This document shows positions 7,144 to 26,829 of a stretch of 64,000 bases of DNA, one piece after another (the stretch's first letter is position 1; each line of letters begins with the position of its first letter). The position numbers and the translations under genes were made by a program. The stretch covers positions 1,733,200 through 1,797,199 of the forward strand of contig OY762428.1 in assembly GCA_963665665.1 (NCBI GenBank), written 5' to 3'. Under the pieces are notes generated by a model that was not told where the DNA came from, searched no databases, and saw only the letters and a program-made list of their open reading frames with translations. The stretch comes from Candidatus Kapaibacterium sp. Its GTDB lineage: Bacteria > Bacteroidota > Ignavibacteria > Kapaibacteriales > UBA2268.

Positions 7144-7392
7144 AGCACATAACATGTTGTATAAGTAATGGCAGGGAATGTGGTAAACATCAAGGTTTGC
7201 ATTCCGCTTCAACTGCGTAGCTATAGAAAAAATTATTAACATACCCCCCACCCTTATTCCAAAACCGGAGCAAAAGATTGATATGAAAAAGATAGAAGAT
7301 AAAAACACAAGATACTGAACGGCTTCCTTTAAAAAAAACAGCGATTTAAGGTGAAATAATCTTAACTTGCAAAAAATCAAAAGGAGCATCAA

Positions 7393-7680
7393 ATGGCAAA
7401 CAAACGAAGAAATTACAGTTCAAAATTCAAAATGCAGGTAGCCCTGGAGGCAGTCCAAGAGAGAAAAACAATAACCGAGCTGGCATCGGAGTACGGGGTT
7501 CATCCAAACCAGATAAGCATGTGGAAAAAGCATTTAAAAGAAAGTGAAAAGGAAGTATTTGAAAACAAGCGTGGGCCAGGGAAGAATAAAAAAGAAAAAG
7601 ACGAATCAGTATTATATGAAGAAATAGGCCGGCTAAAAATTGAATTAGACTGGTTAAAAAAAAAATTGGGACGTGAGTAA
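7393..7680 (+). CDS. IS3 transposase OrfA (HTH)
   Basis: 95-aa ORF. It ends after the slippery run A10 at 7656-7665 (TTAAAAAAAAAATTGGG). Confidence 0.85.
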   Translation: MANKRRNYSSKFKMQVALEAVQERKTITELASEYGVHPNQISMWKKHLKESEKEVFENKRGPGKNKKEKDESVLYEEIGRLKIELDWLKKKLGRE

Positions 7681-8518
7681 AGAAGAACGCAGGAAGATGG
7701 TAGATGCTGATAATAAAGAAATTAGCATAAGCCGGCAGTGCGAGCTTTTGGGTATTAGCAGGAGCTGTTATTATTACAAACCCAAGGGTGAAAGTGAAGC
7801 AAATATTCTATATATGAAGCTGATCAAAGAACAATTCGCGATTACTCCATTTTATGGAGCCAGAAAAATGACAGCACACTTACGTTCTTTGGGATACCAT
7901 GTTAACTATAAACGAATCAGGCGATTAATGAAATTATTGGGACTTCGGGCAATATATCCCCAACCGGACACGAGCAAACCGAACAAGGAGCACAAAATTT
8001 ATCCATACCTGTTGAGGGATATGAAAATAAGTCGTCCGGATCAGGTTTGGAGCCTGGATATAACATATATTCCGATGCGTAAAGGATTTATGTATCTTAT
8101 AGCAATTATAGATGTTTATAGCAGGTATATCGTCGACTGGGAATTATCGAATAACCTTGAGAAGGAGTTCTGCATAGATACAATAAAAAGGTCTTTGAAA
8201 ACCAGGAAACCGGAAATAACAAACACGGATCAGGGCAGTCAGTTCACGAGCAATGATTTTGTGAAAACGATTCTGGATGCTGATGTTAAGGTAAGCATGG
8301 ACGGCAAGGGCCGCGCCTTGGACAATGTTTACATAGAACGCTTCTGGCGGAGCTTTAAATACGAAGACCTGTATCTGAAGTCTTACGAAGACGGAAAAGA
8401 GCTCTATGGCGGTATAAAGGCTTATGTCGATTGGTATAACAACACGAGGCCGCACGCAGGAATTGAATACCAGATTCCGGCTGAAAAATATATGAACGAA
8501 CAGCGGTTCGTTAATTGA
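7673..8518 (+). CDS. IS3 transposase OrfB (DDE/RNaseH-fold), expressed as OrfAB by -1 frameshift
   Basis: DDE-type motifs VWSLDITYIPM, NTDQGSQFTS and YIERFWRSFKYE. It lies in the -1 frame relative to orfA. Confidence 0.85.
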   Translation: MSKEERRKMVDADNKEISISRQCELLGISRSCYYYKPKGESEANILYMKLIKEQFAITPFYGARKMTAHLRSLGYHVNYKRIRRLMKLLGLRAIYPQPDTSKPNKEHKIYPYLLRDMKISRPDQVWSLDITYIPMRKGFMYLIAIIDVYSRYIVDWELSNNLEKEFCIDTIKRSLKTRKPEITNTDQGSQFTSNDFVKTILDADVKVSMDGKGRALDNVYIERFWRSFKYEDLYLKSYEDGKELYGGIKAYVDWYNNTRPHAGIEYQIPAEKYMNEQRFVN

Positions 8519-8755
8519 AAACTTTGTTGGAAAAGTGAAAAAATGCAATCCGGTAAGCAATTGATAAAAAAAGAAATAGAAAGGAGAGTGAAAGTTATCC
8601 ACAATTTCCAGGTTGTTAACAAAAAGAAAAAAAAGTAGCAAAAAAAAGAAAAATTAATATTATTACATATTTTTTTCTTATTTTATTAGAGAAGAAGTAT
8701 AGATTAATAAACACCATAAACTATACTTTTATTTGTCTAAGCAATAGGGAGCATT

Positions 8756-9673
8756 TCACTTTTCTTCTATATATTTTAATGTTTCATCAATATGTTTTTG
8801 AGGATATTTATCAATTATTTCTTGGGCTTGATTTGGTGTTAAGCAAAAATAATTAATCAATTTATTGTAATGCTCGTAATTATAATTATCACTCAATAAT
8901 AATTCAGCTTTATCTTCTTCCAGTAATATATTATTTGATTTAATATGAAATACTATCTCAACTACTTTTCTTCCCTGTTTCCTTTCAGAAAATGTAAAAT
9001 TTATATCAGTTGTTTCATTTATTTCTCTCTGAGCCTGTTGTAATACTTTTATTTTGAAATTTGAATAATTAGGATATTGACCATCTTTTATCCATATTTT
9101 CTTTTTTAAATCCTCAACCGATATCCTCCTTTTAGCAATTCTTTCATACTGTTTCAGCATTTCATATAATCGTATACTGTAGGTACTTCTTAATCTCAAT
9201 ACATATTTCAATGTAAATTTTGTAAATTTTTCTTTCAATTGTAAAAAATACTTTTGTACATCATTTCCCAATTCTATTACTAAATATCCTTTGTTATTAA
9301 CGTATTTACATTTATTCACCCAATGAAGTTGATAATGATTTTCCCCGTCATCATATTCTATTACTCTGGTCATTAACTGCCGTGATATAGTTCTCATTTC
9401 ACTATAATTATTTTTACTCTTAGTACCTAATATTTCATTCAAATCTTTAATATTTAAGTGGTATTCCTGAAATTTTGTATCACCTTTTTCAATTAATGAT
9501 GCTACAATCAACAATAATCTTTGTTCCTGTAAAGATAACTTATAAGGCATTTCAATTAATTCATTATGCTTTATAATAGTTCGTCTATCATCAATAATTT
9601 TCATTTTAATGACTTTTTTCATATTATTCATTATGTTATAAGACAATATTATCATAAAACAAATTAAATGCAA
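8756..9673 (-). CDS. Plasmid replication initiator protein, Rep_3 family
   Basis: The N-terminus IKHNELIEMPYKLSLQEQRLLLIVASLI matches the Rep_3 signature. The gene is AT-rich and sits directly upstream of the iteron array. Confidence 0.65.
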   Translation of the reverse strand: MHLICFMIILSYNIMNNMKKVIKMKIIDDRRTIIKHNELIEMPYKLSLQEQRLLLIVASLIEKGDTKFQEYHLNIKDLNEILGTKSKNNYSEMRTISRQLMTRVIEYDDGENHYQLHWVNKCKYVNNKGYLVIELGNDVQKYFLQLKEKFTKFTLKYVLRLRSTYSIRLYEMLKQYERIAKRRISVEDLKKKIWIKDGQYPNYSNFKIKVLQQAQREINETTDINFTFSERKQGRKVVEIVFHIKSNNILLEEDKAELLLSDNYNYEHYNKLINYFCLTPNQAQEIIDKYPQKHIDETLKYIEEK

Positions 9674-11030
9674 CTACATTTTATCCACAGTTGCATTTAA
9701 TTTGCCCCAAATTGGTTGCACTTAAAAAAACTCAATCCGGTATGTATACCCCAATGTATAGGTAAAATATTTATTATAATATCTGTAACATATTATATTT
9801 TCACGTATATAACTATTGTTATTTATGAATTCCCCAACTGCAACCAATTTGGGGTGAAACCACTTGCTTTTTTCATTTTCGAGGAATATTTTGGAAAATT
9901 ACTATCATATTCCATATAAAAACGACCTATAACAGACCCAGGTCGCATTAAAATGTCTGCTATACCCCAAATCGGTTGCATTTCGCCCCAAATCGGTTGC
10001 ATTTATTTTTTTATTTCCTTGTTTTAAAAGGGTTTTCTGCATCCTAAAATATATAAAATAATTAAAAGATATAAAACAACAACAACAGAGCATCATCACC
10101 CCAAATCGGTTGCATTTAAAATATTATTCGTTGTTGTTGATTCTTTTTTTCAGAATTAAAATAAGAATAAGAATACTAACTATATAAATATCAACTACTA
10201 CATAAGCCTGTACATAGTATTATAAACACCCGGTATGTATACCCCAATGTACAGACAGAAAGTACGACTAAGTTATTGCTAACAGCAATGATATAACTAT
10301 TTCCCCCGCGCCGGTCGCAAGCTCCCGACTCCCCTCCTTTTCCTGACGGCTCCGCTAACGCTCCGGAGCAAAGTCTAACGACATATTGCCAAAAGGAGGG
10401 GAGCCGGAAGCACGTGTTTGCAAACCGCTCGCTGTCGCTCACGGGCAAGCCACGGCACCGGCGCGGGGGAACTTGTTTAACCCAGTCAGGAAAAGGATTT
10501 CCTTCCCCAATATCCAAATGCAACTAATTTGGGGTCAGGTCGAATATTTAGGCAAGCCTAAACCAAAAATTATTACATCCGAATTCTCAGGCAACAATGT
10601 GATGAAGAAAAGAAAAACAAGAAAAAAAACGAAACCCGACCCACCAAAAAGGTCGCATTATAATCCCGTCGTTCATTATATATTCATTATTAATATTCTA
10701 TGTCTAATTGATTCAATAGTTTAATATGTTTCTATTTTCTTCCTTTCCCCAACTGCAACCAATTTGGGGTGAAACCACGGACAAAAGGATGATCTGCGAC
10801 CAAAAACCAGGCAAACAGTGGCAAACAGGCAGAAAAACAGCAGGAATATTAACAAAAACTAATAAAACTACCAATTTGACCCCAAATCGGTTGCATTTCG
10901 CCCCAAATTAGTTGCATTTAACGTAAAAATCTAAAAAATGACCCCAAATCGGTTGCATTTCGCCCCAAATTAGTTGCATTTAACGCAAAAATGTAAAAAA
11001 TGACCCCAAATCGGTTGCACTTAGAGAAAA
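9665..11030. repeat. Iteron array: at least 12 copies of the 19-bp CCCCAAATCGGTTGCATTT (and variants) in both orientations
   Basis: Copies near 9705, 9838(rc), 9963, 9984, 10099, 10518(rc), 10751(rc), 10882, 10903, 10943, 10964 and 11005. A second repeat, CCGGTATGTATACCCCAATGTA, occurs at 9738 and 10230. Confidence 0.75.
10304..10469. repeat. GC-rich nested long inverted repeat (cruciform/hairpin candidate) within the iteron region
   Basis: CCCCCGCGCCGGT (10304-10316) pairs with ACCGGCGCGGGGG (10457-10469). The inner arms CTCCCCTCCTTTT (10330-10342) and AAAAGGAGGGGAG (10391-10403) also pair. Confidence 0.6.
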
Positions 11031-11049
11031 ATATTACTATTTTAATATC

Positions 11050-12381
11050 GTGAGCCCGGCGAAGCCGGGTCCGGACGCCAGACATTTTAATAAAAAAAAG
11101 AAATTATTTCCCGGCAGAGCCGGGAATAAAACATTTTGTTATAAAAAAGCATCGGGAGATGAGCCTTTGAGGTGGTTTTCTCTAATAACATCGCTTATAG
11201 CGGCGGTATTTTTCTTATACATGTTCCTCCGGGGCATGGCATACTCCGAGATAGAGGAGGCAAGGGCAGAGAAAAGGGCAACCGACAGTATCCTTAACTC
11301 GGAATCAATTCCGGCGCCAGTGGAAGAGGAAAATGTCCCGGAGGGTTTCTTTCGCGTAAGGGGAGGGGCATATAATAACATAAGCATTCTGCGGGGAAAG
11401 ATTGACGGCATGCTGATCGGAAATGCCTGGACAATGACGGACAAGGAAAGGATAACGTCCTTCTGTTACTACTGCGATATCGATACGGACATAAAGCTTC
11501 TTGTAAGCTATTCGCGTTTTCAGCAGTATGAAACAAACGACGCTAAAGTAAAAAAAAGAAAAAAACCGTCTTACCCTTTGTTTACCTGGCTGGAAAAATC
11601 CGATTATTCCTATGTCGGATATAATATGAAAAAGGGCATGGCCCTTATTCTTCCTCCGCAACCGGAATTATATTATATAAGCCGCAGGGACGCTTCGGGA
11701 AGCGAGGACAACATATTAATGCCTGCCATGCGCGACGACAGGAATACGAAGATATACCGTTCCTTCGGCAGTGAGAGAATATCGTTTTTTGCCGCAGAGA
11801 AGGATTTTATGTTCCGCATTAACGAGGCTCCCTGCCGTGAGACGATGAAGTTTATGGATGAGGAAAGAAAATCGGTTTACCTGCTTCCCGGGGAAACTTA
11901 CGATACGGGGCTTTGGACAGACAGGGGGGATCAACTGATAATATTCTTTACAGGAAGCATAAAGGTAAGCTCGTTAAACTACGGGGAAAGGACATACTGG
12001 CCCTGCCATGACGCCGACAATTACCGTTGCAGTCATTATTACTGCCGGGAGGGTCAGGAAGGCTTTATAAGCCTGCACGCCCTTGATTCGTCGGCTCTCC
12101 TTTCAATAGAAATAAAGAGGGGATACGGCGAGAAACTGGACCTTGAACCAGGCAAAGCCGCTTACATGGATTTGTTCGAGGGCGACGAGTTTGTGTTTTT
12201 CTCTAAGTCAAGGTTTTATCTTAACGGCAAATTGCAGGATCCGATATACGGCCATTACAGTGACGCCCTGTGGAGCGGCAAAGGCCGCTTTACCGCCGAC
12301 AGCAACTGCACGGTGGAGATAAGGGCTTCGGTCAATCCTAAAACAATATACATCAGGTCAATAAAAAGAAGGGGTTACTGA
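11050..12381 (+). CDS. Hypothetical membrane-anchored protein, first gene of the GC-rich plasmid operon
   Basis: 443-aa ORF. The true start is probably an internal Met (MFLRGMAYSE...). There is an N-terminal TM segment and no recognisable family. Confidence 0.4.
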   Translation: MSPAKPGPDARHFNKKKKLFPGRAGNKTFCYKKASGDEPLRWFSLITSLIAAVFFLYMFLRGMAYSEIEEARAEKRATDSILNSESIPAPVEEENVPEGFFRVRGGAYNNISILRGKIDGMLIGNAWTMTDKERITSFCYYCDIDTDIKLLVSYSRFQQYETNDAKVKKRKKPSYPLFTWLEKSDYSYVGYNMKKGMALILPPQPELYYISRRDASGSEDNILMPAMRDDRNTKIYRSFGSERISFFAAEKDFMFRINEAPCRETMKFMDEERKSVYLLPGETYDTGLWTDRGDQLIIFFTGSIKVSSLNYGERTYWPCHDADNYRCSHYYCREGQEGFISLHALDSSALLSIEIKRGYGEKLDLEPGKAAYMDLFEGDEFVFFSKSRFYLNGKLQDPIYGHYSDALWSGKGRFTADSNCTVEIRASVNPKTIYIRSIKRRGY

Positions 12382-12382
12382 T

Positions 12383-12697
12383 ATGTTTTTTACGGTATTA
12401 TTCCTTGCCCTCGGGGTATGGATTTTTGACTTAATAACGGGAACGCTGGACTATTATATATTTATAATTTACGCTTTCATGTCCGTTTACCTCGGCATTT
12501 TCTACTTTGCCCGTTATACCACGAGCCGGTCAGAAAAGGCCATATACAACAAATTCACGAATATGGTGGAGGATTTGAGCGACAGGGCTGATTACCTCGA
12601 GGCGAGGAGACAGGGCAGAAACAGGGCGAGAGCCGAGAGCATGTCCGAGATGATAGGCAGACGAAGATTATCGGAGGGAAAAAGATATGAGCGATAA
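12383..12697 (+). CDS. Small membrane protein (2 TM + charged tail)
   Basis: The gene is tightly coupled (2-bp gap) to the upstream gene. It has a hydrophobic N-terminus and an R/E-rich C-terminus. Confidence 0.4.
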   Translation: MFFTVLFLALGVWIFDLITGTLDYYIFIIYAFMSVYLGIFYFARYTTSRSEKAIYNKFTNMVEDLSDRADYLEARRQGRNRARAESMSEMIGRRRLSEGKRYER

Positions 12698-13445
12698 AAA
12701 GTATATAGTAAAGCTTGATCAGGGCGAGTACGATGCCTACCTGAAGATGAGGGAAAGGGGAGACATTCCCTCCGGACTGGTAAGCTCAAGGCGCGGCCCC
12801 TCCGGAGGGCAGCTTATGATAAACATGCCTCCTCCGGAGCCGTCAGGAACGATTATGGGGAACAATTACCAGGGAAAGAGGCTGGACTCCTACAACAGCC
12901 TTTTGAACAGGTACATGAACCTTATAAACGGTTTTATGAAGCTTGAGAGGCTTTATCACAAGTATGAGAATATAGAAAAATATTTCTACAGCGACGACCT
13001 TGATATAGAGATAGAAATAAAACATAAGGAAAATTATTTAAACAGCCTTACCGAATCATATAAAACAACGGTAAGCGACGAGGAGCTTAAAAGAAAAATG
13101 AACTCCTATAAGATGGAACTGGCAGACATAAGGCTTGAGGAAAGACGCCTTAAACTACAGGCAAAGGGGGAGAAAGAGGAAATGACTGCTGCCGAGAGTT
13201 ACCGTCGCGAGCAGGAGGAAAAGCTTGAACTGGAAGCCATAAAGGCAGAGTACAGCCGCAAAAGGGAGAGGATGAAGCTTGAGGAAAGGCTGGCAAACAG
13301 GAGGGAGCTTGACGAATATTTTATGAAGATGTCGGAGAGTATTTTAAAGGGCAGGACAGCGGAGGAATTAAGCCCGAGGGAAAGAACCGATTACGAGAAC
13401 CTTGAGGACGAGTATAATGCCTGCTTCGGAAGGGATTTTGAGTAG
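12687..13445 (+). CDS. Charged coiled-coil protein
   Basis: The start overlaps the upstream gene. The E/K/R-rich heptad-like C-terminal half indicates a coiled coil. Confidence 0.45.
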   Translation: MSDKKYIVKLDQGEYDAYLKMRERGDIPSGLVSSRRGPSGGQLMINMPPPEPSGTIMGNNYQGKRLDSYNSLLNRYMNLINGFMKLERLYHKYENIEKYFYSDDLDIEIEIKHKENYLNSLTESYKTTVSDEELKRKMNSYKMELADIRLEERRLKLQAKGEKEEMTAAESYRREQEEKLELEAIKAEYSRKRERMKLEERLANRRELDEYFMKMSESILKGRTAEELSPRERTDYENLEDEYNACFGRDFE

Positions 13446-13448
13446 TTT

Positions 13449-15215
13449 ATGAAAAAAAGCGGAATAGTTCTCGGAAAGGACAATAATGGCAATGATGTAT
13501 TCATGCCTGCCAAAACCAGGTCAACGCACATGCACGTGATAGGATCCACGGGAACGGGAAAATCAAAATTTTTCGAGAGCATGATAAGGCAGGATATATT
13601 AAACCGCCAGGGGCTTTGCCTTATAGACCCTCACGGTTATCTTTTCCATGACATAATAAGGTGGTGCGAGACCATGGGCCTGAGGAACGGCAGGCTTGCA
13701 AAGAACATTGTTTTGCTGGATCCGTCTGCCGACGGATGGGCCTTCGGTTTTAATCCGCTTCGCGGAGGAAGCTGCGAGATAAGCTATCACGTGGATACTA
13801 TGGTAAAAGCCGTAAGCAAGGTATGGGGAGGAGAGAACTCCGACAGGACGCCGCTTCTTAAAAGAGCTTTAAGAAGCATCTTTCACGTTCTTGCCGAGAA
13901 CGAGCTTTCATTGCTCGAGGGGAGGTTTTTAATCGATCCCGTACATGCGGAAACAAGAAAGAAACTGACGGAAAACATCAGCGACCCGGTAATAAAACAG
14001 CAGTGGGATTATTTTAACGAGCTTAAGCCCAAGCCTTTTTACGACGAGTTTGGCTCGACCATTAACAGGCTCATGGAATTTTTTTCATCTCCCCTTATAC
14101 GGGCAATGATAGGGCAGACCGAAAAAGTCATAGACTTTCGGTCAGTAATGGACGAGGGAAAGGTAGTCCTTGTAAACCTGTCGTCCTCCGACCGCGTTTC
14201 CCCGGACAATGCCCGTCTGCTCGGCTCTCTGATTGTTAACGACCTTTTTATGAGGGCTATGGGAAGGCCCGAGGGAAGCAGGCCTTTTTATTTGTACATT
14301 GACGAGTGCAGCCTTTTTGTAAACGAGGATATAGAGCGCATACTCAACGAGGGACGTAAGTTCGGCCTTCACCTTATCCTTGCCCACCAGCAGCTTAAGC
14401 AGTTAAAGAAACAGGCCGGGGAGGGCGTCTATGACGCCGTTATGGGAAGCGCAAAGACAAAGGTGATATTCGGAGGGCTGTCTTATGAAGACGCCGAGGT
14501 CATGGCCAACCAGGTATTCCTCGGTGAGATAGACCTCGAGGAGGGTAAGAAATCCCTTCGCAGGAAAGCCGTCACTGGCCAGGTAAGGATATGGATGAAA
14601 AGCATGTCTGAGGGTGAGAGTGAAAGCACGGGCAGGGGGGAGGCAGACTCCTGGTCGGAGACGGAGACGACAAGCACAGGGGATTCTTCTTCTGCATCAT
14701 TGACTTTCCATGAATCGGGCCTTGTAAGAAGCCAGGGAAGCGGCATGAGCAGCGGGGAGAGCTTTTCCACGTCAAGCTCAAAGAGCGTCAGCAGTTTTAG
14801 TTCCGAGGGGAAAAACAGGAGTAATGGCATAAGAGAGAGTTTTCAGAATGTATATACCGAGCAGGAGGGAGGCCTGTTTTCTTTAGAGGAGCAGAGGTAT
14901 AAGAAGATGGCGGTAATGGTAAACCAGGAGCCGAGGCAGGCGGTGGTAAAACTGCCTGCAAAGAGGAGTAATGTCATAGAAACGCCTTTTGTAAGGGAGG
15001 GCATAGCAAGGCGTGAGAGGGTGGAAAGATTTAAGCGCGAATGCTTCGGGAGCGAGGATTTTGCCATGACGCGAAAGGACGCTGAAAGGCTTATTGACGA
15101 GAGGCATGGCAGGCTTACAGCCGGGGAAGCGCCGGAAAACGAGGAGGAAATCACCGGGCTGACGGATTTTGAGATAGTGGACGATATTCCGGATAGCTGG
15201 AAAGATCTGAAATAA
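13449..15215 (+). CDS. T4CP-like (TraD/TrwB/VirD4, FtsK-HerA superfamily) P-loop ATPase with Ser/Glu-rich C-terminal tail
   Basis: Walker A (IGSTGTGKS) is followed by LIDPHGY, as in the coupling-protein DPKGE box. Walker B is YLYIDECSLF. There is no N-terminal TM segment. Confidence 0.55.
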   Translation: MKKSGIVLGKDNNGNDVFMPAKTRSTHMHVIGSTGTGKSKFFESMIRQDILNRQGLCLIDPHGYLFHDIIRWCETMGLRNGRLAKNIVLLDPSADGWAFGFNPLRGGSCEISYHVDTMVKAVSKVWGGENSDRTPLLKRALRSIFHVLAENELSLLEGRFLIDPVHAETRKKLTENISDPVIKQQWDYFNELKPKPFYDEFGSTINRLMEFFSSPLIRAMIGQTEKVIDFRSVMDEGKVVLVNLSSSDRVSPDNARLLGSLIVNDLFMRAMGRPEGSRPFYLYIDECSLFVNEDIERILNEGRKFGLHLILAHQQLKQLKKQAGEGVYDAVMGSAKTKVIFGGLSYEDAEVMANQVFLGEIDLEEGKKSLRRKAVTGQVRIWMKSMSEGESESTGRGEADSWSETETTSTGDSSSASLTFHESGLVRSQGSGMSSGESFSTSSSKSVSSFSSEGKNRSNGIRESFQNVYTEQEGGLFSLEEQRYKKMAVMVNQEPRQAVVKLPAKRSNVIETPFVREGIARRERVERFKRECFGSEDFAMTRKDAERLIDERHGRLTAGEAPENEEEITGLTDFEIVDDIPDSWKDLK

Positions 15216-15230
15216 TGTATTATAATTTAA

Positions 15231-16208: not shown

Positions 16209-16360
16209 ATATTTGCCTGAAGCGCTATGTTCCTGCTTTTCCTTTGCTCCTGTTAAGACATATTTTGCTTTTATCATGCTGAAATTTGATATGATTTTGA
16301 GTTGTAAGTTGTAATTCCGGCCTGTTTCTGACCGTTTATGGCTATGCACATATATGTAAC

Positions 16361-16439
16361 ATTAATTGCACTGTTATTGCACTGTTATTGCACTGTTATT
16401 GCACCGTTATTGCACCGTTATTGCACTGTTATTGCACTG
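16361..16439. repeat. Tandem repeat of 11 bp, TTATTGCAC(T/C)G, 7 copies
   Basis: Read directly: ttattgcactg x3, ttattgcaccg x2, ttattgcactg x2. Confidence 0.85.
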
Positions 16440-16699
16440 GTTGTTCTTTGTCTGTGTCGTGATATGTATCCGGTATTTGACAATCACTGAACAATCACTG
16501 CAAACAGTATCGCATAGCAGAAAACAGGCAGATTAATACAATGCAAAAGGCAATAAACAAGCAAATAATTGTTTCCCGGATCAATATGGAGCATCAATAT
16601 ACGATCAGACAAGTACCCGAAAACATCAATTTTTTACATTTTTTAATTATGTGCGGGCTAATTTTGTAAGCTGTCGCAACCATGTACCGCCGGGCGTAA

Positions 16700-18444: not shown

Positions 18445-18453
18445 TTTAGCGTC

Positions 18454-18516
18454 AGCTTAGCCATGTCAACCTCGTACAAGTCTCCAAATTGACAAAGGCC
18501 ACAGCGATCAGCCGCT
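18454..18516. repeat. 63-bp direct repeat, copy 1 (partner at 19033-19096, about 90% identical)
   Basis: The sequence agcttagccatgtcaacctcgtacaagtctccaaattgacaaaggccacagcgatcagccgct contains the inverted hexamers TGTCAA...TTGACA. Confidence 0.7.
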
Positions 18517-18593
18517 TTGTATGTCTTATCATCCTGAAGCTCAGAGCGCCGTTTCAGTCATGATTTTTTAATTAAAGGCGTTCAAAAAAAAAT

Positions 18594-18902
18594 ATGAGTA
18601 ATCTTAAAAATTACTTTCCGGGAGTTTTTATCACTACCGGAATACATGAACTTGCGCGATCAAAGGAATGTTTCTGGCTCCTTGACCTTATCGTGTCTTA
18701 CCAGGCACATCCCGTTGTCGGTAAAGAACCATTTCAGTCTTACAGGCTAAAGGTCAATCCGGACGAATCCGCAACGCTTACCGTTACCGACGGCAATGAC
18801 AATGTCCTTGCCGAAAGGAAAATACCCTGGACTGATTTTGCGGGTTCTGCGCTTACCGTCTGGTGCGTTGATAAAATCATTTTGTTGCCTTCTGAATACT
18901 GA
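18594..18902 (+). CDS. Hypothetical protein
   Basis: 102-aa ORF flanked by the 63-bp direct repeats. Confidence 0.3.
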   Translation: MSNLKNYFPGVFITTGIHELARSKECFWLLDLIVSYQAHPVVGKEPFQSYRLKVNPDESATLTVTDGNDNVLAERKIPWTDFAGSALTVWCVDKIILLPSEY

Positions 18903-19032
18903 AGGCAACATTTTCTTTTTTTTATAAAGGCAGCTCAATGGAGCTTTTTGTTAATTATTCCGGGGAGCGCAAGTCTTTACTTTATGCTTTTATAACCCCT
19001 TTTGTGCCCGTCGGAATCCTCATTATAGCGGC

Positions 19033-19096
19033 AGCTTAACCGTGTCAACCTCGTACGGAGTCTCCAAATTGACAAAGGCCAGAGCGATCAGCCGCT
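19033..19096. repeat. 63-bp direct repeat, copy 2
   Basis: agcttaaccgtgtcaacctcgtacggagtctccaaattgacaaaggccagagcgatcagccgct. Confidence 0.7.
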
Positions 19097-19366
19097 GTAT
19101 TCGGGGCTTGCCGACAGGTAACAAACACGGCGTTACCGGCAGGCGGATATAAATAAAAGCCGTGAACAATAACTTTATGAACAAAGTTCAAAAAGAGAAG
19201 CATGAAAATGTTTCCGAAGCAAAACAGGATTTTCTGAAAAAACAGGAGATCATCAGAAAGCAGATCAAAGCCCGATGGGGCGAAAGGGATGAACGGCTTC
19301 CTTTAAAAAAAACAGCGATTTAAGGTGAAATAATCTTAACTTGCAAAAAATCAAAAGGAGCATCAA

Positions 19367-19654
19367 ATGGCAAACAAACGAAGAAATTACAGTTCAAAAT
19401 TCAAAATGCAGGTAGCCCTGGAGGCAGTCCAAGAGAGAAAAACAATAACCGAGCTGGCATCGGAGTACGGGGTTCATCCAAACCAGATAAGCATGTGGAA
19501 AAAGCATTTAAAAGAAAGTGAAAAGGAAGTATTTGAAAACAAGCGTGGGCCAGGGAAGAATAAAAAAGAAAAAGACGAATCAGTATTATATGAAGAAATA
19601 GGCCGGCTAAAAATTGAATTAGACTGGTTAAAAAAAAAATTGGGACGTGAGTAA
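19367..19654 (+). CDS. IS3 transposase OrfA
   Basis: Protein identical to copy 1 OrfA. Confidence 0.85.
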   Translation: MANKRRNYSSKFKMQVALEAVQERKTITELASEYGVHPNQISMWKKHLKESEKEVFENKRGPGKNKKEKDESVLYEEIGRLKIELDWLKKKLGRE

Positions 19655-20492
19655 AGAAGAACGCAGGAAGATGGTAGATGCTGATAATAAAGAAATTAGC
19701 ATAAGCCGGCAGTGCGAGCTTTTGGGTATTAGCAGGAGCTGTTATTATTACAAACCCAAGGGTGAAAGTGAAGCAAATATTCTATATATGAAGCTGATCA
19801 AAGAACAATTCGCGATTACTCCATTTTATGGAGCCAGAAAAATGACAGCACACTTACGTTCTTTGGGATACCATGTTAACTATAAACGAATCAGGCGATT
19901 AATGAAATTATTGGGACTTCGGGCAATATATCCCCAACCGGACACGAGCAAACCGAACAAGGAGCACAAAATTTATCCATACCTGTTGAGGGATATGAAA
20001 ATAAGTCGTCCGGATCAGGTTTGGAGCCTGGATATAACATATATTCCGATGCGTAAAGGATTTATGTATCTTATAGCAATTATAGATGTTTATAGCAGGT
20101 ATATCGTCGACTGGGAATTATCGAATAACCTTGAGAAGGAGTTCTGCATAGATACAATAAAAAGGTCTTTGAAAACCAGGAAACCGGAAATAACAAACAC
20201 GGATCAGGGCAGTCAGTTCACGAGCAATGATTTTGTGAAAACGATTCTGGATGCTGATGTTAAGGTAAGCATGGACGGCAAGGGCCGCGCCTTGGACAAT
20301 GTTTACATAGAACGCTTCTGGCGGAGCTTTAAATACGAAGACCTGTATCTGAAGTCTTACGAAGACGGAAAAGAGCTCTATGGCGGTATAAAGGCTTATG
20401 TCGATTGGTATAACAACACGAGGCCGCACGCAGGAATTGAATACCAGATTCCGGCTGAAAAATATATGAACGAACAGCGGTTCGTTAATTGA
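19647..20492 (+). CDS. IS3 transposase OrfB
   Basis: Protein identical to copy 1 OrfB. Confidence 0.85.
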   Translation: MSKEERRKMVDADNKEISISRQCELLGISRSCYYYKPKGESEANILYMKLIKEQFAITPFYGARKMTAHLRSLGYHVNYKRIRRLMKLLGLRAIYPQPDTSKPNKEHKIYPYLLRDMKISRPDQVWSLDITYIPMRKGFMYLIAIIDVYSRYIVDWELSNNLEKEFCIDTIKRSLKTRKPEITNTDQGSQFTSNDFVKTILDADVKVSMDGKGRALDNVYIERFWRSFKYEDLYLKSYEDGKELYGGIKAYVDWYNNTRPHAGIEYQIPAEKYMNEQRFVN

Positions 20493-20857
20493 AAACTTTG
20501 TTGGAAAAGTGAAAAAATGCAATCCGGTAAGCAATTGATAAAAAAAGAAATAGAAAGGAGAGTGAAAGTTATCCACAATTTCCAGGTTGTTAACAAAAAG
20601 AAAAAAAAGTAGCAAAAAAAAGAAAAATTAATATTATTACATATTTTTTTCTTATTTTATTAGAGAAGAAGTATAGATTAATAAACACCATAAACTATAC
20701 TTTTATTTGTCTAAGCAATAGGGAGCATTTCACTCAGCAGATCTGTGGAATTTCATTACAAAAGATAATTTAACAGCAGAAGATTCTTTTGGATTTACAA
20801 CACCAAGGAGCCTATCAAAATCAATTAGAAAAAAAGATTAGAAAAGGATAATCGAAA

Positions 20858-21232
20858 ATGATATCAAAAAAAATTATATTTTGTATAATATTCATCATAG
20901 TAAATATGGCAAAATTAGCATCAACAGATAATCTTAATGAAGATTACATTGGTATTTGTAAAATATCAAAAGACACAATCAGAATTGATTATTTTAGTTC
21001 TGTGCATGGTATTTCAAAAGTTTGTACTAAAATTAACGGTGATACACTAAACCTTAATCTTTTAGTAAGAGTTGGCAAGAAGCAAGATAGTCATTTCATT
21101 AAAATAAATGAAAATATAAAAGTTATATCAACTGGAAATATTAAATATTATGTTAATGATTTGGATTCATGTGGACAATTATATGAGGGAATTGATGCAA
21201 TAGAATATCTAAAAAAGCAAAGAACTGAATAA
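20858..21232 (+). CDS. Small secreted hypothetical protein
   Basis: 124-aa ORF with an N-terminal hydrophobic signal-like segment. Confidence 0.35.
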   Translation: MISKKIIFCIIFIIVNMAKLASTDNLNEDYIGICKISKDTIRIDYFSSVHGISKVCTKINGDTLNLNLLVRVGKKQDSHFIKINENIKVISTGNIKYYVNDLDSCGQLYEGIDAIEYLKKQRTE

Positions 21233-21417
21233 TTTATTATCCACTTTATCCCCCCGCCCTTCGGGGCGGGGATATATAAAGATCAATAACTGATGTATCC
21301 TTAATCATAAGAAAAAAGAGTTAAGGAATGGAGGATTGTTAAGGTTAAATGTTAGAGTTAACATCCACTGCTAAATCATTGGTTATTTTAATTTACTAAT
21401 TAATTTTGGAGGTTGCC

Positions 21418-22023
21418 ATGAAATCAGGCAAAGGAATTTTTATTGTTCTTGCAGTAATTTTGTTTTCGTATTTAAACATGCAGGCTGACTGTTATTATCC
21501 CTACCAGCAGTATTCATTCACCGGAAATTATGACGGTTGTGAATATATCTGCTACATTTGTTCAAAAACTGATTCGACATATCCGTTTGATCAGACATCA
21601 TATATCGATAGGATCGAAGTTTTGAATATTAACTGTTCCGACATGTTTGAAGATCCCTTATTCTGGGAAGAAGTAAATGAGAATGTTCTGTTAACTTTAA
21701 TGAATGATGCAAGCTGGCCGCCCTGCAGTAATGAAACTTATGAGTTTCTTATAAAAAGCGCACGATGCTGGAAGATTATTCATGACCATGTCGATAATAT
21801 GCTCACAATGAAAAATTGCGGGTATGATGCTTATTGCCTCAGTACTTATGAAGTATGTACCGATTATAACAAAAATCCGCCGGAAAACAAATGGACAATG
21901 ATTGGTAAATCAGTTATTAGTACTCCGGGATGTTCCGGAAACGGAGTTCCCGATTTACCTCCTTCGGGCAAAACCTGGAGTCAGGATTGGGAAACAGACT
22001 GCTTTATATTAGATTGCTATTAA
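21418..22023 (+). CDS. Cysteine-rich secreted hypothetical protein
   Basis: ATG at 21418 is preceded by GGAGG. The protein has a signal peptide and many Cys residues. Confidence 0.4.
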   Translation: MKSGKGIFIVLAVILFSYLNMQADCYYPYQQYSFTGNYDGCEYICYICSKTDSTYPFDQTSYIDRIEVLNINCSDMFEDPLFWEEVNENVLLTLMNDASWPPCSNETYEFLIKSARCWKIIHDHVDNMLTMKNCGYDAYCLSTYEVCTDYNKNPPENKWTMIGKSVISTPGCSGNGVPDLPPSGKTWSQDWETDCFILDCY

Positions 22024-22092
22024 TTTATTAATTTTCGTCATCCATCCGTATATTTGTACGGATGGATGATTTATTATTATTTTGGTTAGACT

Positions 22093-24327
22093 ATGAAAAG
22101 ATTAATCCTTTTATTCGCTTCGATTATTTTTATTACATCGCAAGCACAATCTGAACTTGTATTTGACTATCAAAGATTGGATATCAATTACACCGCAGTT
22201 ATTCATAAATACAATAATGTTTTCTTCTCAGGAAATTCGAATATCATAACGAGATATAACAAAGCATTACAGAAATGGAATCATATTAAAGTTGGGAAAA
22301 AAGATATTGATATTATAACTATAAAGGATTCTGATCAATCTCTTTACGGAATCTTCAAGCACCAATATATTTTTAAACTTGATATTAATGGAACGCCCCT
22401 GCAAATTGAAAATATTTCGGATACATCGACTAAGTTTTTAGATGTTCAATATCACTTAGGCAAATACTATATATTATGCAGGGATAAACTTATTGAACTT
22501 GATTCCGGATTTTCGTTTGTTCGGGATATTGAATTGCCTGAGGAAATAGAAGTATTGGAACTAACAGTGTTCGATGAAGCAATGATTATCGGAACAACTA
22601 ATGGTAAACTGCTTGTTTTTGAAGGGCAGGTTAACAGCAGTCCTGATATAATCGATTTAAATAGTATGCAATTATGCGAGCCTGATGCCAGGGTACATAA
22701 ATTTATTGAAAGTGATAACGAGCTTTACCTGATAATTGGTTCAAAGATATATTCAAGCGGCGATCTGGAATCTTTCAGGCCGCATGAAACCAATAATTTG
22801 AACTATAATGTTAATCATGGCAAAGTTTTTACTTTTTCAGTTGGTGGAAACGAGTTAAATCAATGTTCCTTTCACGTGTATGAAAATCAGGAACCTGTCC
22901 TGGTTAACAGGGGAAAGCTTGACAGATATGTAGAACAAATAAACGTATTGAACTTCTACTTTGTTGATTATAACATTATTTATGCTGTTGGCTCCAATAA
23001 CCTGATCCTGCGTTCAACGGACAGGGGAGGAACCTGGAAAGTAATATCATTTCTGAAACCTTATTACAAGTCTTCCTGGATAAGTGATGAAACAGGTTTT
23101 ATATATGCTGATGACGGTATTTTCATAAAAACGACAAACGGCGGTATTACATGGCAGCCACAATTAAATACATGGGTAAGCCTAAAGAAATTTAACCGCA
23201 AAACAACCTGCAACTTTGACCAGGATGGTAGATGTGTGATGTTCAGAGGATATGTTCAGGGTAGCGATCCGCATGCAGTTATTTCAAAAGACAGCTGTAA
23301 TACTTTTGAATACAAGAGAATTAATGAAATATCATCCTATGGGTTTGTTGATTTGCAGGCTCCGATAGTCAGAACAGAAGATGAATATAAGCTTTTTTAT
23401 CCCGGAAGGCACGGGCAAATGACTTATACTCTTATTTATACTCTTGACCTTGAGTTGAATTATAAAAACAAAGAGTTACTGGATGCAATCCATATCTTTG
23501 ATATTAAAAGCTATAAAGACGGTTGGCTTGCATTAGCCAAGGATTTTAAATATACAGACCTATACAGTCCTGATACAAATGTATACCATGTTATGTATTC
23601 TGATTACCCGGGCGTGGAATGGGATACCCTTCTGACGGTTAATCTTATGGATACTATTGCCCGAAATATAAACATTTTTGGTGATCAGGTTTTTCTGAAT
23701 GGTCATGTATTTAATCCTCTCCCTGATACATCAAGATATGTCCTTTATTTGCTTGATCCGGAGTATTCCACATATAAATCAATTCGTGTTGATTATGAAT
23801 CAACTTATAATAAAGTTTTTAAAACAGGCAATTATTATGTAACCGGCGGAAATAATTGCCTGTTGTATTGCGAGGATATTGAGAATAACCCTGAACATTG
23901 GGAAAAAACCACGGTAGAAGGGTATAATATCTTTTATTTAATGGGTAAAGGCAACAATTCAATGTACGCCTATACTTATGATGGGCATTATTTAAAATTC
24001 ACTTTCCAAAAGGAAACCTCGGTTGAAGATATAAGTGTTGAAAAAGTCAAAATGTATAGCTATCCTCCCTATCCTCAACCGGCGAATTATTCCGTGAAAT
24101 TTGAAATTTTCTGGGACAGCCGCTATAATCTTGAAAATGCAGCAATCGCAGTTCATGATTACATGGGCAGGGTTGTAAGCCGCCCCGGTGAAATTAGTAT
24201 TGATAAGTTAAACAATTACCAGGGCTATCTAAATTGGAACTGTTCCAAAACGTCCAACGGCGTATATTTCATTACTATTAATAATGCAGGTACTGTAAAG
24301 ACTGTTCCTGTTGTTGTTGACAGATAG
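22093..24327 (+). CDS. Secreted BNR-repeat protein with T9SS C-terminal sorting domain
   Basis: BNR motifs STDRGGTWKV and TTNGGITWQP, a signal peptide, and a C-terminus (NGVYFITINNAGTVKTVPVVVDR) typical of a T9SS CTD. Confidence 0.6.
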   Translation: MKRLILLFASIIFITSQAQSELVFDYQRLDINYTAVIHKYNNVFFSGNSNIITRYNKALQKWNHIKVGKKDIDIITIKDSDQSLYGIFKHQYIFKLDINGTPLQIENISDTSTKFLDVQYHLGKYYILCRDKLIELDSGFSFVRDIELPEEIEVLELTVFDEAMIIGTTNGKLLVFEGQVNSSPDIIDLNSMQLCEPDARVHKFIESDNELYLIIGSKIYSSGDLESFRPHETNNLNYNVNHGKVFTFSVGGNELNQCSFHVYENQEPVLVNRGKLDRYVEQINVLNFYFVDYNIIYAVGSNNLILRSTDRGGTWKVISFLKPYYKSSWISDETGFIYADDGIFIKTTNGGITWQPQLNTWVSLKKFNRKTTCNFDQDGRCVMFRGYVQGSDPHAVISKDSCNTFEYKRINEISSYGFVDLQAPIVRTEDEYKLFYPGRHGQMTYTLIYTLDLELNYKNKELLDAIHIFDIKSYKDGWLALAKDFKYTDLYSPDTNVYHVMYSDYPGVEWDTLLTVNLMDTIARNINIFGDQVFLNGHVFNPLPDTSRYVLYLLDPEYSTYKSIRVDYESTYNKVFKTGNYYVTGGNNCLLYCEDIENNPEHWEKTTVEGYNIFYLMGKGNNSMYAYTYDGHYLKFTFQKETSVEDISVEKVKMYSYPPYPQPANYSVKFEIFWDSRYNLENAAIAVHDYMGRVVSRPGEISIDKLNNYQGYLNWNCSKTSNGVYFITINNAGTVKTVPVVVDR

Positions 24328-24390
24328 AGTAGTGATAAGCAGGACGTTCCAGAAATAAATATTAGTTTACATAAGATAGATTATAATGCA

Positions 24391-24420
24391 AAATCCGGGA
24401 AGATTTTTCCGGATTTTGTT
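24391..24420 (+). terminator. Rho-independent terminator
   Basis: Hairpin tccgggaagatttttccgga followed by a T-run, downstream of the 744-aa gene. Confidence 0.6.
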
Positions 24421-24988
24421 CGTTTTGTGGCCGCCGTTGACGCATGCCGACGGCCAGCGGCAGCCAACTACGAAAAATGACGAGCTGCGACGCAAAAATT
24501 ACTCTCCGGAGAGAATTCCTTCATAAATTAGTCGTTTTCAGGAAAAATTTCCGGAAATTGTCCCATCCCAGAGGCTATTTCTAAAAACGACCGCCATAAA
24601 TCGCTTCTAAGGGGTTTTTATTTTTAGATTCGGTTGATGTATGGTAATTTTTGAAACGAGGCATCGCTTGACAACAATCTTATAATGATGTAATGTTTGC
24701 TAATGTTCTTTTTACAATAATATAATAGGTGTACAATGTATTCTAAAAATAATTCTCAATCAAATTCAAATTATGGCATTTGGTTTGTGATAATAGCATT
24801 AGTTTCAATAAACATCATTGCTTTTGGTTTTTTATCCTATTACCTTTCTTACTGGTTTATTGTTTTAGTTTCAATCCAATTTCTTTATTTTTCTTTTTTT
24901 AAAAGGAAATCTGAACGGCTTCCTTTAAAAAAAACAGCGATTTAAGGTGAAATAATCTTAACTTGCAAAAAATCAAAAGGAGCATCAA

Positions 24989-25276
24989 ATGGCAAACAAA
25001 CGAAGAAATTACAGTTCAAAATTCAAAATGCAGGTAGCCCTGGAGGCAGTCCAAGAGAGAAAAACAATAACCGAGCTGGCATCGGAGTACGGGGTTCATC
25101 CAAACCAGATAAGCATGTGGAAAAAGCATTTAAAAGAAAGTGAAAAGGAAGTATTTGAAAACAAGCGTGGGCCAGGGAAGAATAAAAAAGAAAAAGACGA
25201 ATCAGTATTATATGAAGAAATAGGCCGGCTAAAAATTGAATTAGACTGGTTAAAAAAAAAATTGGGACGTGAGTAA
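24989..25276 (+). CDS. IS3 transposase OrfA
   Basis: Protein identical to copy 1 OrfA. Confidence 0.85.
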   Translation: MANKRRNYSSKFKMQVALEAVQERKTITELASEYGVHPNQISMWKKHLKESEKEVFENKRGPGKNKKEKDESVLYEEIGRLKIELDWLKKKLGRE

Positions 25277-26114
25277 AGAAGAACGCAGGAAGATGGTAGA
25301 TGCTGATAATAAAGAAATTAGCATAAGCCGGCAGTGCGAGCTTTTGGGTATTAGCAGGAGCTGTTATTATTACAAACCCAAGGGTGAAAGTGAAGCAAAT
25401 ATTCTATATATGAAGCTGATCAAAGAACAATTCGCGATTACTCCATTTTATGGAGCCAGAAAAATGACAGCACACTTACGTTCTTTGGGATACCATGTTA
25501 ACTATAAACGAATCAGGCGATTAATGAAATTATTGGGACTTCGGGCAATATATCCCCAACCGGACACGAGCAAACCGAACAAGGAGCACAAAATTTATCC
25601 ATACCTGTTGAGGGATATGAAAATAAGTCGTCCGGATCAGGTTTGGAGCCTGGATATAACATATATTCCGATGCGTAAAGGATTTATGTATCTTATAGCA
25701 ATTATAGATGTTTATAGCAGGTATATCGTCGACTGGGAATTATCGAATAACCTTGAGAAGGAGTTCTGCATAGATACAATAAAAAGGTCTTTGAAAACCA
25801 GGAAACCGGAAATAACAAACACGGATCAGGGCAGTCAGTTCACGAGCAATGATTTTGTGAAAACGATTCTGGATGCTGATGTTAAGGTAAGCATGGACGG
25901 CAAGGGCCGCGCCTTGGACAATGTTTACATAGAACGCTTCTGGCGGAGCTTTAAATACGAAGACCTGTATCTGAAGTCTTACGAAGACGGAAAAGAGCTC
26001 TATGGCGGTATAAAGGCTTATGTCGATTGGTATAACAACACGAGGCCGCACGCAGGAATTGAATACCAGATTCCGGCTGAAAAATATATGAACGAACAGC
26101 GGTTCGTTAATTGA
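25269..26114 (+). CDS. IS3 transposase OrfB
   Basis: Protein identical to copy 1 OrfB. Confidence 0.85.
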   Translation: MSKEERRKMVDADNKEISISRQCELLGISRSCYYYKPKGESEANILYMKLIKEQFAITPFYGARKMTAHLRSLGYHVNYKRIRRLMKLLGLRAIYPQPDTSKPNKEHKIYPYLLRDMKISRPDQVWSLDITYIPMRKGFMYLIAIIDVYSRYIVDWELSNNLEKEFCIDTIKRSLKTRKPEITNTDQGSQFTSNDFVKTILDADVKVSMDGKGRALDNVYIERFWRSFKYEDLYLKSYEDGKELYGGIKAYVDWYNNTRPHAGIEYQIPAEKYMNEQRFVN

Positions 26115-26614
26115 AAACTTTGTTGGAAAAGTGAAAAAATGTAATCCGGTAAGCAATTGATAAAAAAAGAAATAGAAAGGAGAGTGAAAGTTATCCACAA
26201 TTTCCAGGTTGTTAACAAAAAGAAAAAAAAGTAGCAAAAAAAAGAAAAATTAATATTATTACATATTTTTTTCTTATTTTATTAGAGAAGAAGTATAGAT
26301 TAATAAACACCATAAACTATACTTTTATTTGTCTAAGCAATAGGGAGCATTTCATACTATATCGAGATTGATATAAAAACAATGAAGATCATCAATTATG
26401 ATTACGACCAAAAAGAAAATTTTGACCTAAACCAGTTAAACAAAGGGCCGACTCAAATAATATTTTTAACAAAAGGCCAGTACAACAAATTTGTTGGCCG
26501 CCTTGCAGAATAATATCCGCAACCAAATCGAAAGATTAAATAATTATATAACTACTGATTTTACTGCCAATATCGCTTTGGGCTCAGGCTATCAATAAAA
26601 TTTCTCCTTTTTTT

Positions 26615-26729: not shown

Positions 26730-26774
26730 GTCCTCTAACCAAATCCACCTCCCCCCCTCTTTCCTATTCCAAAA

Positions 26775-26792: not shown

Positions 26793-26829
26793 GTGATTCT
26801 GGAATTGCTTTTCGGCTGCATTTAATCCT

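Follow-up and report, generated by a model that had tools for sequence, protein, structure and literature searches.

How did three insertion sequences and two unrelated passengers come to lie within what looks like one chromosomal target site? We addressed this question for an array found in the 64-kb window (the whole stretch of DNA analysed here), which also contains mreBCD, yidC and surA, a chromosomal context. The array and the small open reading frame (ORF) that it interrupts are laid out as follows.

7283–7315 (+): codons 1–11 of a 62-aa ORF; the last of these, TAC (7313–7315), is the left target duplication
7316–8758 (+): IS copy 1, 1443 bp, ends TGAAC...TTTCA
8759–19289: segment 1, 10.5 kb, between copies 1 and 2
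19290–20732 (+): IS copy 2, same sequence as copy 1
20733–24911 (+): segment 2, 4179 bp, 34% GC
24912–26354 (+): IS copy 3, one SNP (C to T) at 26142
26355–26513 (+): right TAC (26355–26357), then the rest of the 62-aa ORF (51 codons and stop)

The IS copies and their target site

Comparison within the window confirmed the three near-identical 1443-bp copies of the initial annotation, all in direct orientation. No differences were found between copies 1 and 2. Copy 3 carries the single SNP reported before, a C-to-T substitution at position 1231 of the IS, within its non-coding right end, although its window position is 26142 and not "near 26141". Past the IS ends, the identity shared by the copies runs on for at most 1–2 chance bases. 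The flanks read TAC[IS1]CTT, GGA[IS2]CTC and ATC[IS3]TAC. When all nine pairings of a left with a right flank were compared, the left flank of copy 1 and the right flank of copy 3 were the sole 3-bp match, and no inner pair formed a duplication longer than 1 bp. The inner flanks are unmatched, as had been annotated, but the GAT then given to the left of copy 2 reads GGA.

The outer TAC pair had been proposed to be the target duplication of a single insertion, with a chance match put at about 1 in 64, and a search for an empty site in related genomes had been suggested. Such a site was found in a related contig, L005, in which the flanks of the array are contiguous, with a single TAC (L005 8355–8357) inside a 62-aa ORF. 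L005 and the window are 98% identical over 1445–6016 and 97.7% identical over 30187–33667; an intact gene of 62 aa is called at L005 8325–8513, and the ORF rejoined from the window is identical to it at 58 of 62 residues. Because L005 carries the uninterrupted site with one TAC, we conclude from the comparison that the outer TAC pair represents a true 3-bp duplication of one insertion site, and the chance-match argument no longer matters.

The coding capacity of the element, given for copy 1, is as follows.

7393–7680 (+): orfA, 95 aa, HTH_Tnp_1
7656–7665: run of ten A residues (A10)
7673/7697–8518 (+): orfB, rve DDE; the 7673 start overlaps orfA

With 274 bits, OrfB exceeded the cut-off of 160 for NCBIfam NF033516, and Pfam detected rve, rve_3 and HTH_21, with HTH_Tnp_1 in OrfA, in agreement with the earlier assignment to the IS3 family. 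The terminal inverted repeats are imperfect and of the TG...CA type (TGAACGGCTTCCTTT... and ...AGGGAGCATTTCA), complementary at 11 of their first 15 positions. The TAC duplication falls within the 3–4 bp characteristic of the family, although it surrounds the whole array rather than a single copy. Elements of this family have orfB in the −1 frame, with programmed −1 frameshifting at an A6G-type motif. Here, in contrast, orfB lies at offset 1 from orfA, the +1 frame, as compared with offset 2 in E. coli IS3, IS150 and IS2. The overlap between the two genes sits on the A10 run, and deletion of one A fuses the ORFs. The +1 frame together with the A10 run constitutes an expression signal that is atypical for the IS3 family; a precedent for slippage at an A run is IS1447 (PMC6211511).

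We regard the element as a new IS3-family insertion sequence. Its closest named relative is ISPpy1 of Psychrobacter maritimus pKLH80 (OrfB about 52% identical), which belongs to a separate subgroup of the family according to Petrova et al. (2013), as cited in PMC6211511. The two elements have a similar OrfA end (..DWLKKK..) and TG..CA termini, but 52% identity makes them separate ISs, and orfB of ISPpy1 lies in the −1 frame instead of the +1 frame across an A10 run. The source genome contains at least one further copy elsewhere, with a 1-aa OrfA variant, so that partners for recombination exist.

The passengers

The features of segment 1 are listed below.

8759–9631 (−): rep′, truncated Rep3 initiator, codons 1–291 of 442 (Pfam Rep3_N and Rep3_C)
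9678–11033: iteron region, putative oriV, upstream of rep; at least 12 copies of the ~19–21-nt CCCCAAATCGGTTGCATTT in both orientations
11050–13445 (+): three plasmid backbone genes (443, 104 and 252 aa), syntenic in L003 and L004
13449–15215 (+): type IV coupling-protein-like ATPase, 588 aa (TrwB_AAD_bind, TraG-D_C)
15231–16208 (+): Replic_Relax (PF13814) protein, putative relaxase or replication-relaxation protein (E 3.5e-21)
16365–16439: tandem repeat, 11 nt × 6.8, ATTGCACTGTT, downstream of the Replic_Relax gene
17395–18444 (−): DnaG-type primase, zinc ribbon and Toprim (profile match)
18594–18902 (+): DUF6876 protein, 102 aa (profile match); 100% the same protein on L003
19177–19289 (+): 5′ part (37 codons) of a plasmid gene for a 91-aa protein, interrupted by IS copy 2

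In related metagenomes, this segment has relatives on two distinct plasmid contigs, L003 (whose name has a "c" label, for a putatively circular molecule) and L004/L012. L003 526–8887 corresponds to window 19289–10939 at 98.5% identity, and L004 and L012 match 8758–19289 at 94–99.8%, with homology ending at both IS edges. The 443-, 104- and 252-aa proteins, for which no match was found in Pfam or NCBIfam, are 96–99% identical in L003 and L004, and the 588-aa ATPase falls in the same 90% cluster as the proteins of both contigs. The product of rep′ is identical at 291 of 291 residues to the first 291 of P0121, the 442-aa Rep of L004, and its stop codon comes from the end of IS copy 1 (8756–8758). 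At the other edge, the 91-aa protein is intact at L003 363–638 (−), and homology ends exactly at 19289. The junctions are base-precise, rep being cut at codon 291 of 442 and the 91-aa gene at codon 37. Neither gene has its remainder in the window, which also lacks the partner half-sites ...ATTATTATACTT[IS] and [IS]GGAAGCCGAAAGC...; the relatives also bear ParA, a resolvase and further genes that the window lacks.

As judged from these junctions, segment 1 comes from the interior of a Rep3/iteron plasmid and is cut on both sides. Of the "plasmid-like module" annotated initially, the plasmid DNA stands; a complete module is rejected, since the 10.5-kb segment is chromosomal, has both edges cut and codes for only 291 of the 442 Rep residues. 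Like Rep3 (iteron) plasmids, the segment has the Rep3_N (WH1) and Rep3_C (WH2) domains and an adjoining iteron array, but the whole initiator gene and the autonomous circular molecule of such a replicon are missing: this copy is truncated and chromosomal. Its Rep also differs, being 38–45% identical to named Reps, the nearest of which are from Bacillaceae (Priestia, Niallia). The backbone (coupling-protein-like ATPase, Replic_Relax protein, primase and DUF6876 protein) had no near match among 72,556 PLSDB plasmids. The ATTGCACTGTT repeat might serve as an oriT or have a regulatory role.

Segment 2 had been described as secreted-protein cargo, and its three genes agree with this.

20858–21232 (+): 124-aa secreted protein
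21418–22023 (+): 201-aa secreted protein
22093–24327 (+): 744-aa secreted protein, BNR-like, with a T9SS C-terminal sorting domain

For all three, a collection of 15 billion proteins contained no relative at 90% identity or more. A small ORF starting at 24736 reads into IS copy 3.

Formation of the array

Because no inner flank pair forms a duplication, transposition alone is insufficient to produce the TAC-flanked array, and one or more IS-by-IS recombinations must have taken place. With junctions TAC|CTT, GGA|CTC and ATC|TAC, simple or composite transpositions alone never give three ISs and two passengers within one duplication. The flanks thus uphold the earlier suggestion that recombination between IS copies expanded the locus, for at least one event.

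We would give an even chance to an account in which a solo IS came first and the passengers were then added by recombination between IS copies. The IS would have inserted once into the small chromosomal ORF of a Kapabacteria-like bacterium, duplicating TAC. Circles, each with one IS copy and a passenger, would have integrated into the resident IS, every integration adding one passenger and one direct IS copy and leaving the outer TAC duplication unchanged. Integration could have occurred by RecA-dependent homologous recombination or, alternatively, by transposase-driven insertion beside the resident copy, in the manner of a translocatable unit or "megacircle". Passenger 1 would be a 10.5-kb arc of a mobilisable Rep3/iteron plasmid between two IS insertions (rep codon 291; codon 37 of the 91-aa gene), and passenger 2 the 4.2-kb secreted-protein block, also bounded by two IS insertions at another place. 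The SNP is in the rightmost copy, at its far right end, and this placement is weakly consistent with persistence of the resident IS sequence to the right of the crossovers. The parts of this account that we infer are the order of events and the recombination machinery.

As to the machinery, insertion of an IS-plus-passenger circle beside a resident IS has been shown experimentally for an IS3-family element (Ocasio and Cotter, 2019; PMC6350997). We think it unlikely that an ISPpy1-like element builds multi-passenger arrays in this way, by transposase-driven, RecA-independent insertion of circles; if it did, a branch of the IS3 family would in general have the capacity to build such arrays. To our knowledge, array building by circle insertion has so far been a matter of IS26 and, within the IS3 family, of the B. 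thailandensis megacircle alone.

The earlier proposal of one ancestral insertion holds for the duplication of a single site, empty in L005; a solo-IS ancestor does not follow, because insertion of a composite gives the same outer duplication. It is possible, if rather doubtful, that a composite (copy 1, segment 1 and copy 2, or the whole array prebuilt in a donor plasmid) was pasted into TAC, where no solo IS ever stood. A passenger between two IS copies, with a target duplication around the whole unit, is exactly the pattern of a compound transposon; both inner edges of segment 1 are IS insertions in a plasmid, as expected on a donor, fewer events would be needed for passenger 1, and IS3-family composites with very large passengers are documented (PMC6350997). 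Yet three ISs and two unrelated passengers would still need one IS-by-IS recombination, here or in the donor. Moreover, neither L003 nor L004 has an IS at the rep or 91-aa gene positions or, on its contig, an OrfA copy at 90% identity or more, and an IS within rep might cripple a free donor plasmid. No solo-IS allele was found at the TAC site; the related sequence showed the empty site only.

It seems improbable that the array is an assembly chimera, with six real IS junctions misthreaded through the 1.44-kb repeat and a true state of a solo IS plus separate IS-bearing circles or plasmids. The repeats are identical, so that connectivity rests on reads longer than ~1.5 kb, the source is apparently metagenome-derived (a single 5.46-Mb contig), and free plasmid relatives occur in related samples. 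A wrong path, however, would have to traverse exactly a 10.5-kb plasmid arc followed by another, unrelated arc of 4.2 kb, and the hifiasm-style names of the related contigs hint at long accurate reads spanning 1.4 kb. Even then the biology would be unchanged: the plasmid would carry IS copies and the chromosome an insertion at TAC. Three independent insertions into a pre-existing island that held both segments have virtually no chance of being the explanation. Nothing beyond the presence of three copies favours them, and they are refuted by the empty site (the outer flanks are directly contiguous in L005, with nothing between), by the flank pairings (each copy should have its own 3-bp duplication, and 0 of 3 do) and by the cut plasmid genes, which lie at the inner edges without their other halves. 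An integrative conjugative or mobilisable element was also considered and rejected: the ends are IS copies, profile searches detected no integrase or recombinase in 8759–19289 or 20733–24911, and there is no tRNA in the window.

Known systems and consequences

The array is not a new kind of system; it is an ordinary, well-documented case in which ISs bring cargo genes and DNA from a plasmid into a chromosome. In Hfr-type integration, the F plasmid enters by recombination between plasmid and chromosomal copies of IS2 or IS3. As there, plasmid DNA lies in the chromosome between direct IS3-family copies and transfer genes are kept, but here only a 10.5-kb arc of a plasmid of roughly 40–48 kb is present, with rep truncated, and a second, non-plasmid passenger follows. 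The IS2-like megacircle of B. thailandensis E264 (PMC6350997) also involves direct IS3-family copies that bound a passenger, and its circle of one IS plus passenger re-inserts beside an existing IS copy, the kind of step that formation of the present array calls for. It differs in having a 210-kb passenger and two IS copies, as against three copies and two small, unrelated passengers, and in belonging to another IS subgroup (OrfB here is 21% identical to E. coli IS2 InsD); its dependence on transposase was established experimentally, whereas the mechanism here is deduced.

The topology resembles that of the pseudo-compound transposons and translocatable-unit arrays of IS26 (IS6 family), in which neighbouring passengers share direct IS copies, new units join at an existing IS, and a duplication is found at the outer ends of the array only. 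The sharing of direct copies without inner duplications is found here as well. IS6 elements, in contrast, have a single ORF and an 8-bp duplication instead of OrfA/OrfB and 3 bp, and an IS26-type transposase was rejected (25.8 bits against the IS6 model NF033587, cut-off 125). The locus is thus a natural IS3-family multi-passenger array with a topology usually tied to IS26. What is new is the IS, with its +1 frame and A10 signal, and a plasmid backbone without a close DNA match in PLSDB. Little is known of the host's lineage, which is uncultured and Kapabacteria-like and for which the databases searched contained no named plasmid or IS relative; all stages (empty site, free plasmid relatives and captured fragment) are visible in related samples.

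Formation of the array disrupted the 62-aa ORF and left rep truncated and the iterons in place. Through the 1443-bp direct repeats, it is plausible that the passengers delete or amplify as circles of 11,974, 5,622 or 17,596 bp. Possibly, the retained iterons and the truncated Rep, identical to that of the co-occurring plasmid, keep that plasmid out through incompatibility.

The IS copies and their insertion site

Direct comparison upheld the initial annotation in its description of three near-identical 1443-bp copies of an IS3-family element lying in direct orientation. Copies 1 and 2 show no difference, and the only substitution in copy 3 is C to T at position 1231 of the IS (window 26142).

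Features of the array
7316-8758, IS copy 1 (IS1), 1443 bp, direct orientation
7393-7680, orfA of copy 1, 95 aa, HTH_Tnp_1
7673-8518, orfB of copy 1, HTH_21, rve and rve_3 domains
8759-19289, segment 1, 43% GC
19290-20732, IS copy 2 (IS2), 1443 bp, direct orientation
20733-24911, segment 2, 34% GC
24912-26354, IS copy 3 (IS3), 1443 bp, direct orientation

With the NCBIfam model of the IS3 family, OrfB scored 274 bits (cut-off 160), and the IS termini (TGAAC...TTTCA) are complementary at 11 of the first 15 positions. The element is new: PLSDB DNA matches were weak and short, the best covering at most 11% of it, and a search with its right-end pattern gave no match in genome, metagenome and viral contig collections. 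The closest named relative is ISPpy1 (OrfB identity about 52%), which PMC6211511 cites as founding a separate IS3 subgroup. OrfB is only 27%, 28% and 21% identical to the E. coli K-12 proteins InsF (IS3), InsK (IS150) and InsD (IS2), respectively, and the element therefore falls outside the IS3, IS150 and IS2 groups. Four of the five defining features of the IS3 family are present, the canonical -1 frameshift arrangement being the one that is absent: relative to orfA, the frame of orfB is +1 (offset 1), as compared with offset 2, the -1 frame, in IS3, IS150 and IS2. The two ORFs overlap on an A10 run (7656-7665), and removal of one A fuses them; copies 2 and 3 share this arrangement (window 7656-7680), as does the IS copy of the related contig L001. 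The +1 frame, the A10 run and the fusion upon loss of one A suggest that OrfAB may be made by transcriptional slippage on the A run, if not by +1 recoding. Slippage on an A run has been reported for IS1447 (PMC6211511).

At least one further copy, with an OrfA variant R80Q (P0123), is present in the 5.46-Mb source contig outside the window. The copy in L001 (ENA ERZ21869602 ctg93447l, 9660-11366) is 97.4% identical, and its flanks (GCGC|CGGG) show no target duplication; directly adjoining its left end is an 89-aa C-terminal remnant of a T9SS sorting-domain gene, which suggests another IS-associated deletion or rearrangement.

The flanks of the three copies read TAC[IS1]CTT, GGA[IS2]CTC and ATC[IS3]TAC (GGA had been misread as GAT in the initial annotation), and among the nine pairings of a left with a right flank only the outermost (L1/R3) matches over 3 bp. 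The proposal that this outer TAC is a target duplication was confirmed by comparison with a related genome. L005, a 72,777-bp contig of ENA sample ERZ21869602, shares 98.1% identity with window 1445-6016 and 97.7% with 30187-33667, and in it the counterpart of 7194-7315 is joined directly to that of 26358-26897 (...GATAAAAATACAAGATAC|TATATCGAGATTGAT...), with a single TAC at 8355-8357. Since the flanks are contiguous there with one TAC, the 19,039-bp array fills a single insertion site with a 3-bp duplication. In L005 the site falls inside a predicted 62-aa gene (8325-8513); when the two halves in the window were rejoined, the resulting ORF was identical to it at 58 of 62 residues, and the insertion would thus have disrupted this ORF. 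The exact empty-site pattern AAACACAAGATACTATATCGAGATTG had no match in genome contigs and JGI metagenome contigs, as expected, because one base is different in the L005 site (AAATACAAG) and L005 is an ENA contig, not a JGI one. An allele with a solo IS at this site would read ...AAGATAC[IS]TACTATATCG.... Within the small interrupted ORF, the insertion site has the 10-mer AGATTGATAT on either side (7277-7286 and 26366-26375). The second copy reads AGATTGATTT in L005, and the pair is probably due to chance or a small internal repeat of the 62-aa gene.

The passengers

Segment 1 encodes a Rep3 initiator, a T4CP-like ATPase, Replic_Relax, a DnaG-type primase, DUF6876 and several unknown proteins, and carries an iteron field (9678-11033) with at least 12 copies of CCCCAAATCGGTTGCATTT. 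PLSDB held no near DNA match to the segment, and the iteron pattern had no match in the viral contig collection. The same backbone was found, in synteny, on two plasmid contigs from related metagenomes: L003 (ERZ21831104 ctg95346c, 48,347 bp), whose 'c' name suffix suggests that it may be circular, and L004/L012 (ERZ21869602 ctg85232l, 40,819 bp). Homology to both ends exactly at the right edge of IS1 and the left edge of IS2. The IS1 edge truncates rep after codon 291, the IS terminus supplying a stop codon; the 442-aa Rep of L004 begins with exactly the same 291 residues (100% identity). The IS2 edge interrupts a 91-aa gene after codon 37. The missing partner half-sites would read ...ATTATTATACTT[IS], with the 3' end of rep, and [IS]GGAAGCCGAAAGC, with the remaining part of the 91-aa gene. 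In the plasmid relatives, the sequence goes on to ParA, a resolvase, a further DUF6876 gene, TPR proteins and other genes, all of them absent from the window. That homology stops at the IS edges, that genes are cut there and that these plasmid genes are missing indicates that segment 1 is an arc of a plasmid of about 40-48 kb that once lay between two IS insertions, and not a complete replicon. The chromosome would as a consequence have gained plasmid transfer genes together with an iteron array and a truncated Rep.

The donor plasmid is, judging by identity levels, a mosaic. L012 4926-15829 matches window 8758-19289 at 94-96%, rising to 99.8% for rep and its upstream region (8759-10003), a stretch only about 70% identical to L003. 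The remaining backbone (10745-19289), conversely, is nearer to L003 (98.5%, the value for L003 526-8887 against window 19289-10939) than to L004 (96.1%). The closest named relatives of Rep are those of Bacillaceae plasmids (38-45%), despite the Kapabacteria-like host. An 11-nt tandem repeat (ATTGCACTGTT, 6.8 copies, 16365-16439) follows the Replic_Relax gene, and a direct repeat of about 76 nt, also present in L003 and L004, lies on either side of the DUF6876 gene (18442-18516 and 19021-19096). These repeats may be oriT or regulatory sites.

The three proteins encoded by segment 2 have N termini that resemble signal peptides, and one of them is a 744-aa BNR-like T9SS substrate. None of the three had a relative of 90% identity or more in a collection of 15 billion proteins, and the readable parts of the plasmid relatives contained no homologue of them. 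When the 744-aa protein was used as query, the homology search found nothing but the protein itself; only local tblastn detected a paralogue, 38% identical, in L001.

Assembly of the array

After any transposition, simple or composite, the 3-bp flanks at the two ends match. Here, all four inner junctions are orphan half-sites, a single target duplication surrounds three ISs, and the plasmid genes are cut to the base at the IS ends. Because the inner flanks do not match, transposition alone cannot give IS-segment 1-IS-segment 2-IS within TAC...TAC. We conclude that two IS copies must have been joined by recombination on at least one occasion; the IS-IS recombination put forward in the initial annotation is thus needed at least once to explain the observed flanks. 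Joining the inner flanks as hypothetical circles (L2+R1, L3+R2 and L3+R1) restored no gene, which fits with rep and the 91-aa gene being present without their other halves. Three independent insertions into a pre-existing island are refuted by the contiguous empty site of L005, by the flanks and by the cut plasmid genes.

With middling confidence, we favour the order envisaged initially, in which a solo IS would first have inserted at TAC and IS-bearing circles would then have integrated one after another. The recombination could have been a RecA-dependent exchange between identical 1443-bp repeats, or a transposase-driven insertion of a circle, made of the IS plus its passenger, beside a resident IS. 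The latter process is well known for IS26. Within the IS3 family, an IS2-like element of Burkholderia thailandensis has also been shown to behave in this way (PMC6350997). The array itself is not an IS26-type element, because its transposase is not of that family. Somewhat less probably, a composite unit (IS-segment 1-IS or the whole array) arrived and itself made the TAC duplication, which for passenger 1 would require fewer steps. It is unlikely that the identical repeats led to an assembly chimera, and in that case too the sample must contain all six junctions. Circles of 11,974, 5,622 or 17,596 bp could be released or amplified through recombination between the perfect direct repeats; the corresponding joints would be L2-IS-R1, L3-IS-R2 and L3-IS-R1, respectively.

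The topology is that of a compound or pseudo-compound transposon, and the array can be likened to Hfr-like plasmid capture combined with translocatable-unit-like growth. It belongs to known kinds and is of modest interest, with good support from the comparative evidence.

Chromosomal setting

The window, which is chromosomal, includes mreBCD (37.4-40.2 kb), yidC and surA-like genes, encodes several T9SS C-terminal sorting-domain proteins, and was placed by exact protein look-ups on a single 5,458,198-bp contig in both NCBI and ENA. The best named relatives of YidC are from Candidatus Kapaibacterium/Kapabacteria (62% identity). No tRNA and no Rfam match were found in the window, and the array is thus not a tRNA-targeted island; nor is it an ICE or IME, since no integrase was found.

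A variable cassette adjoins the insertion site (window 6016-7194 versus L005 4575-8238), with a beta-lactamase-fold gene (6070-7143) in the window and an N6_Mtase and Eco57I-type restriction-modification pair plus a 221-aa gene in L005. The region at 27.5-30.2 kb is also unlike L005. A lone large-terminase gene (Terminase_6N/6C; 4634-6025, 58% GC amid a region of about 40% GC) is intact in the window and split into three ORFs in L005, with no other phage genes recognised nearby. Further along, window 41416-44600 contains units duplicated at a spacing of 1396-1417 bp, each carrying long arrays (42158-42947 and 43554-44364) of a 21-bp tandem repeat. This region also has four occurrences of a conserved motif of about 45 nt (..GTCATTCTGAGCGCCAGCGAAGAATCC..), and ORFs are open in several frames.
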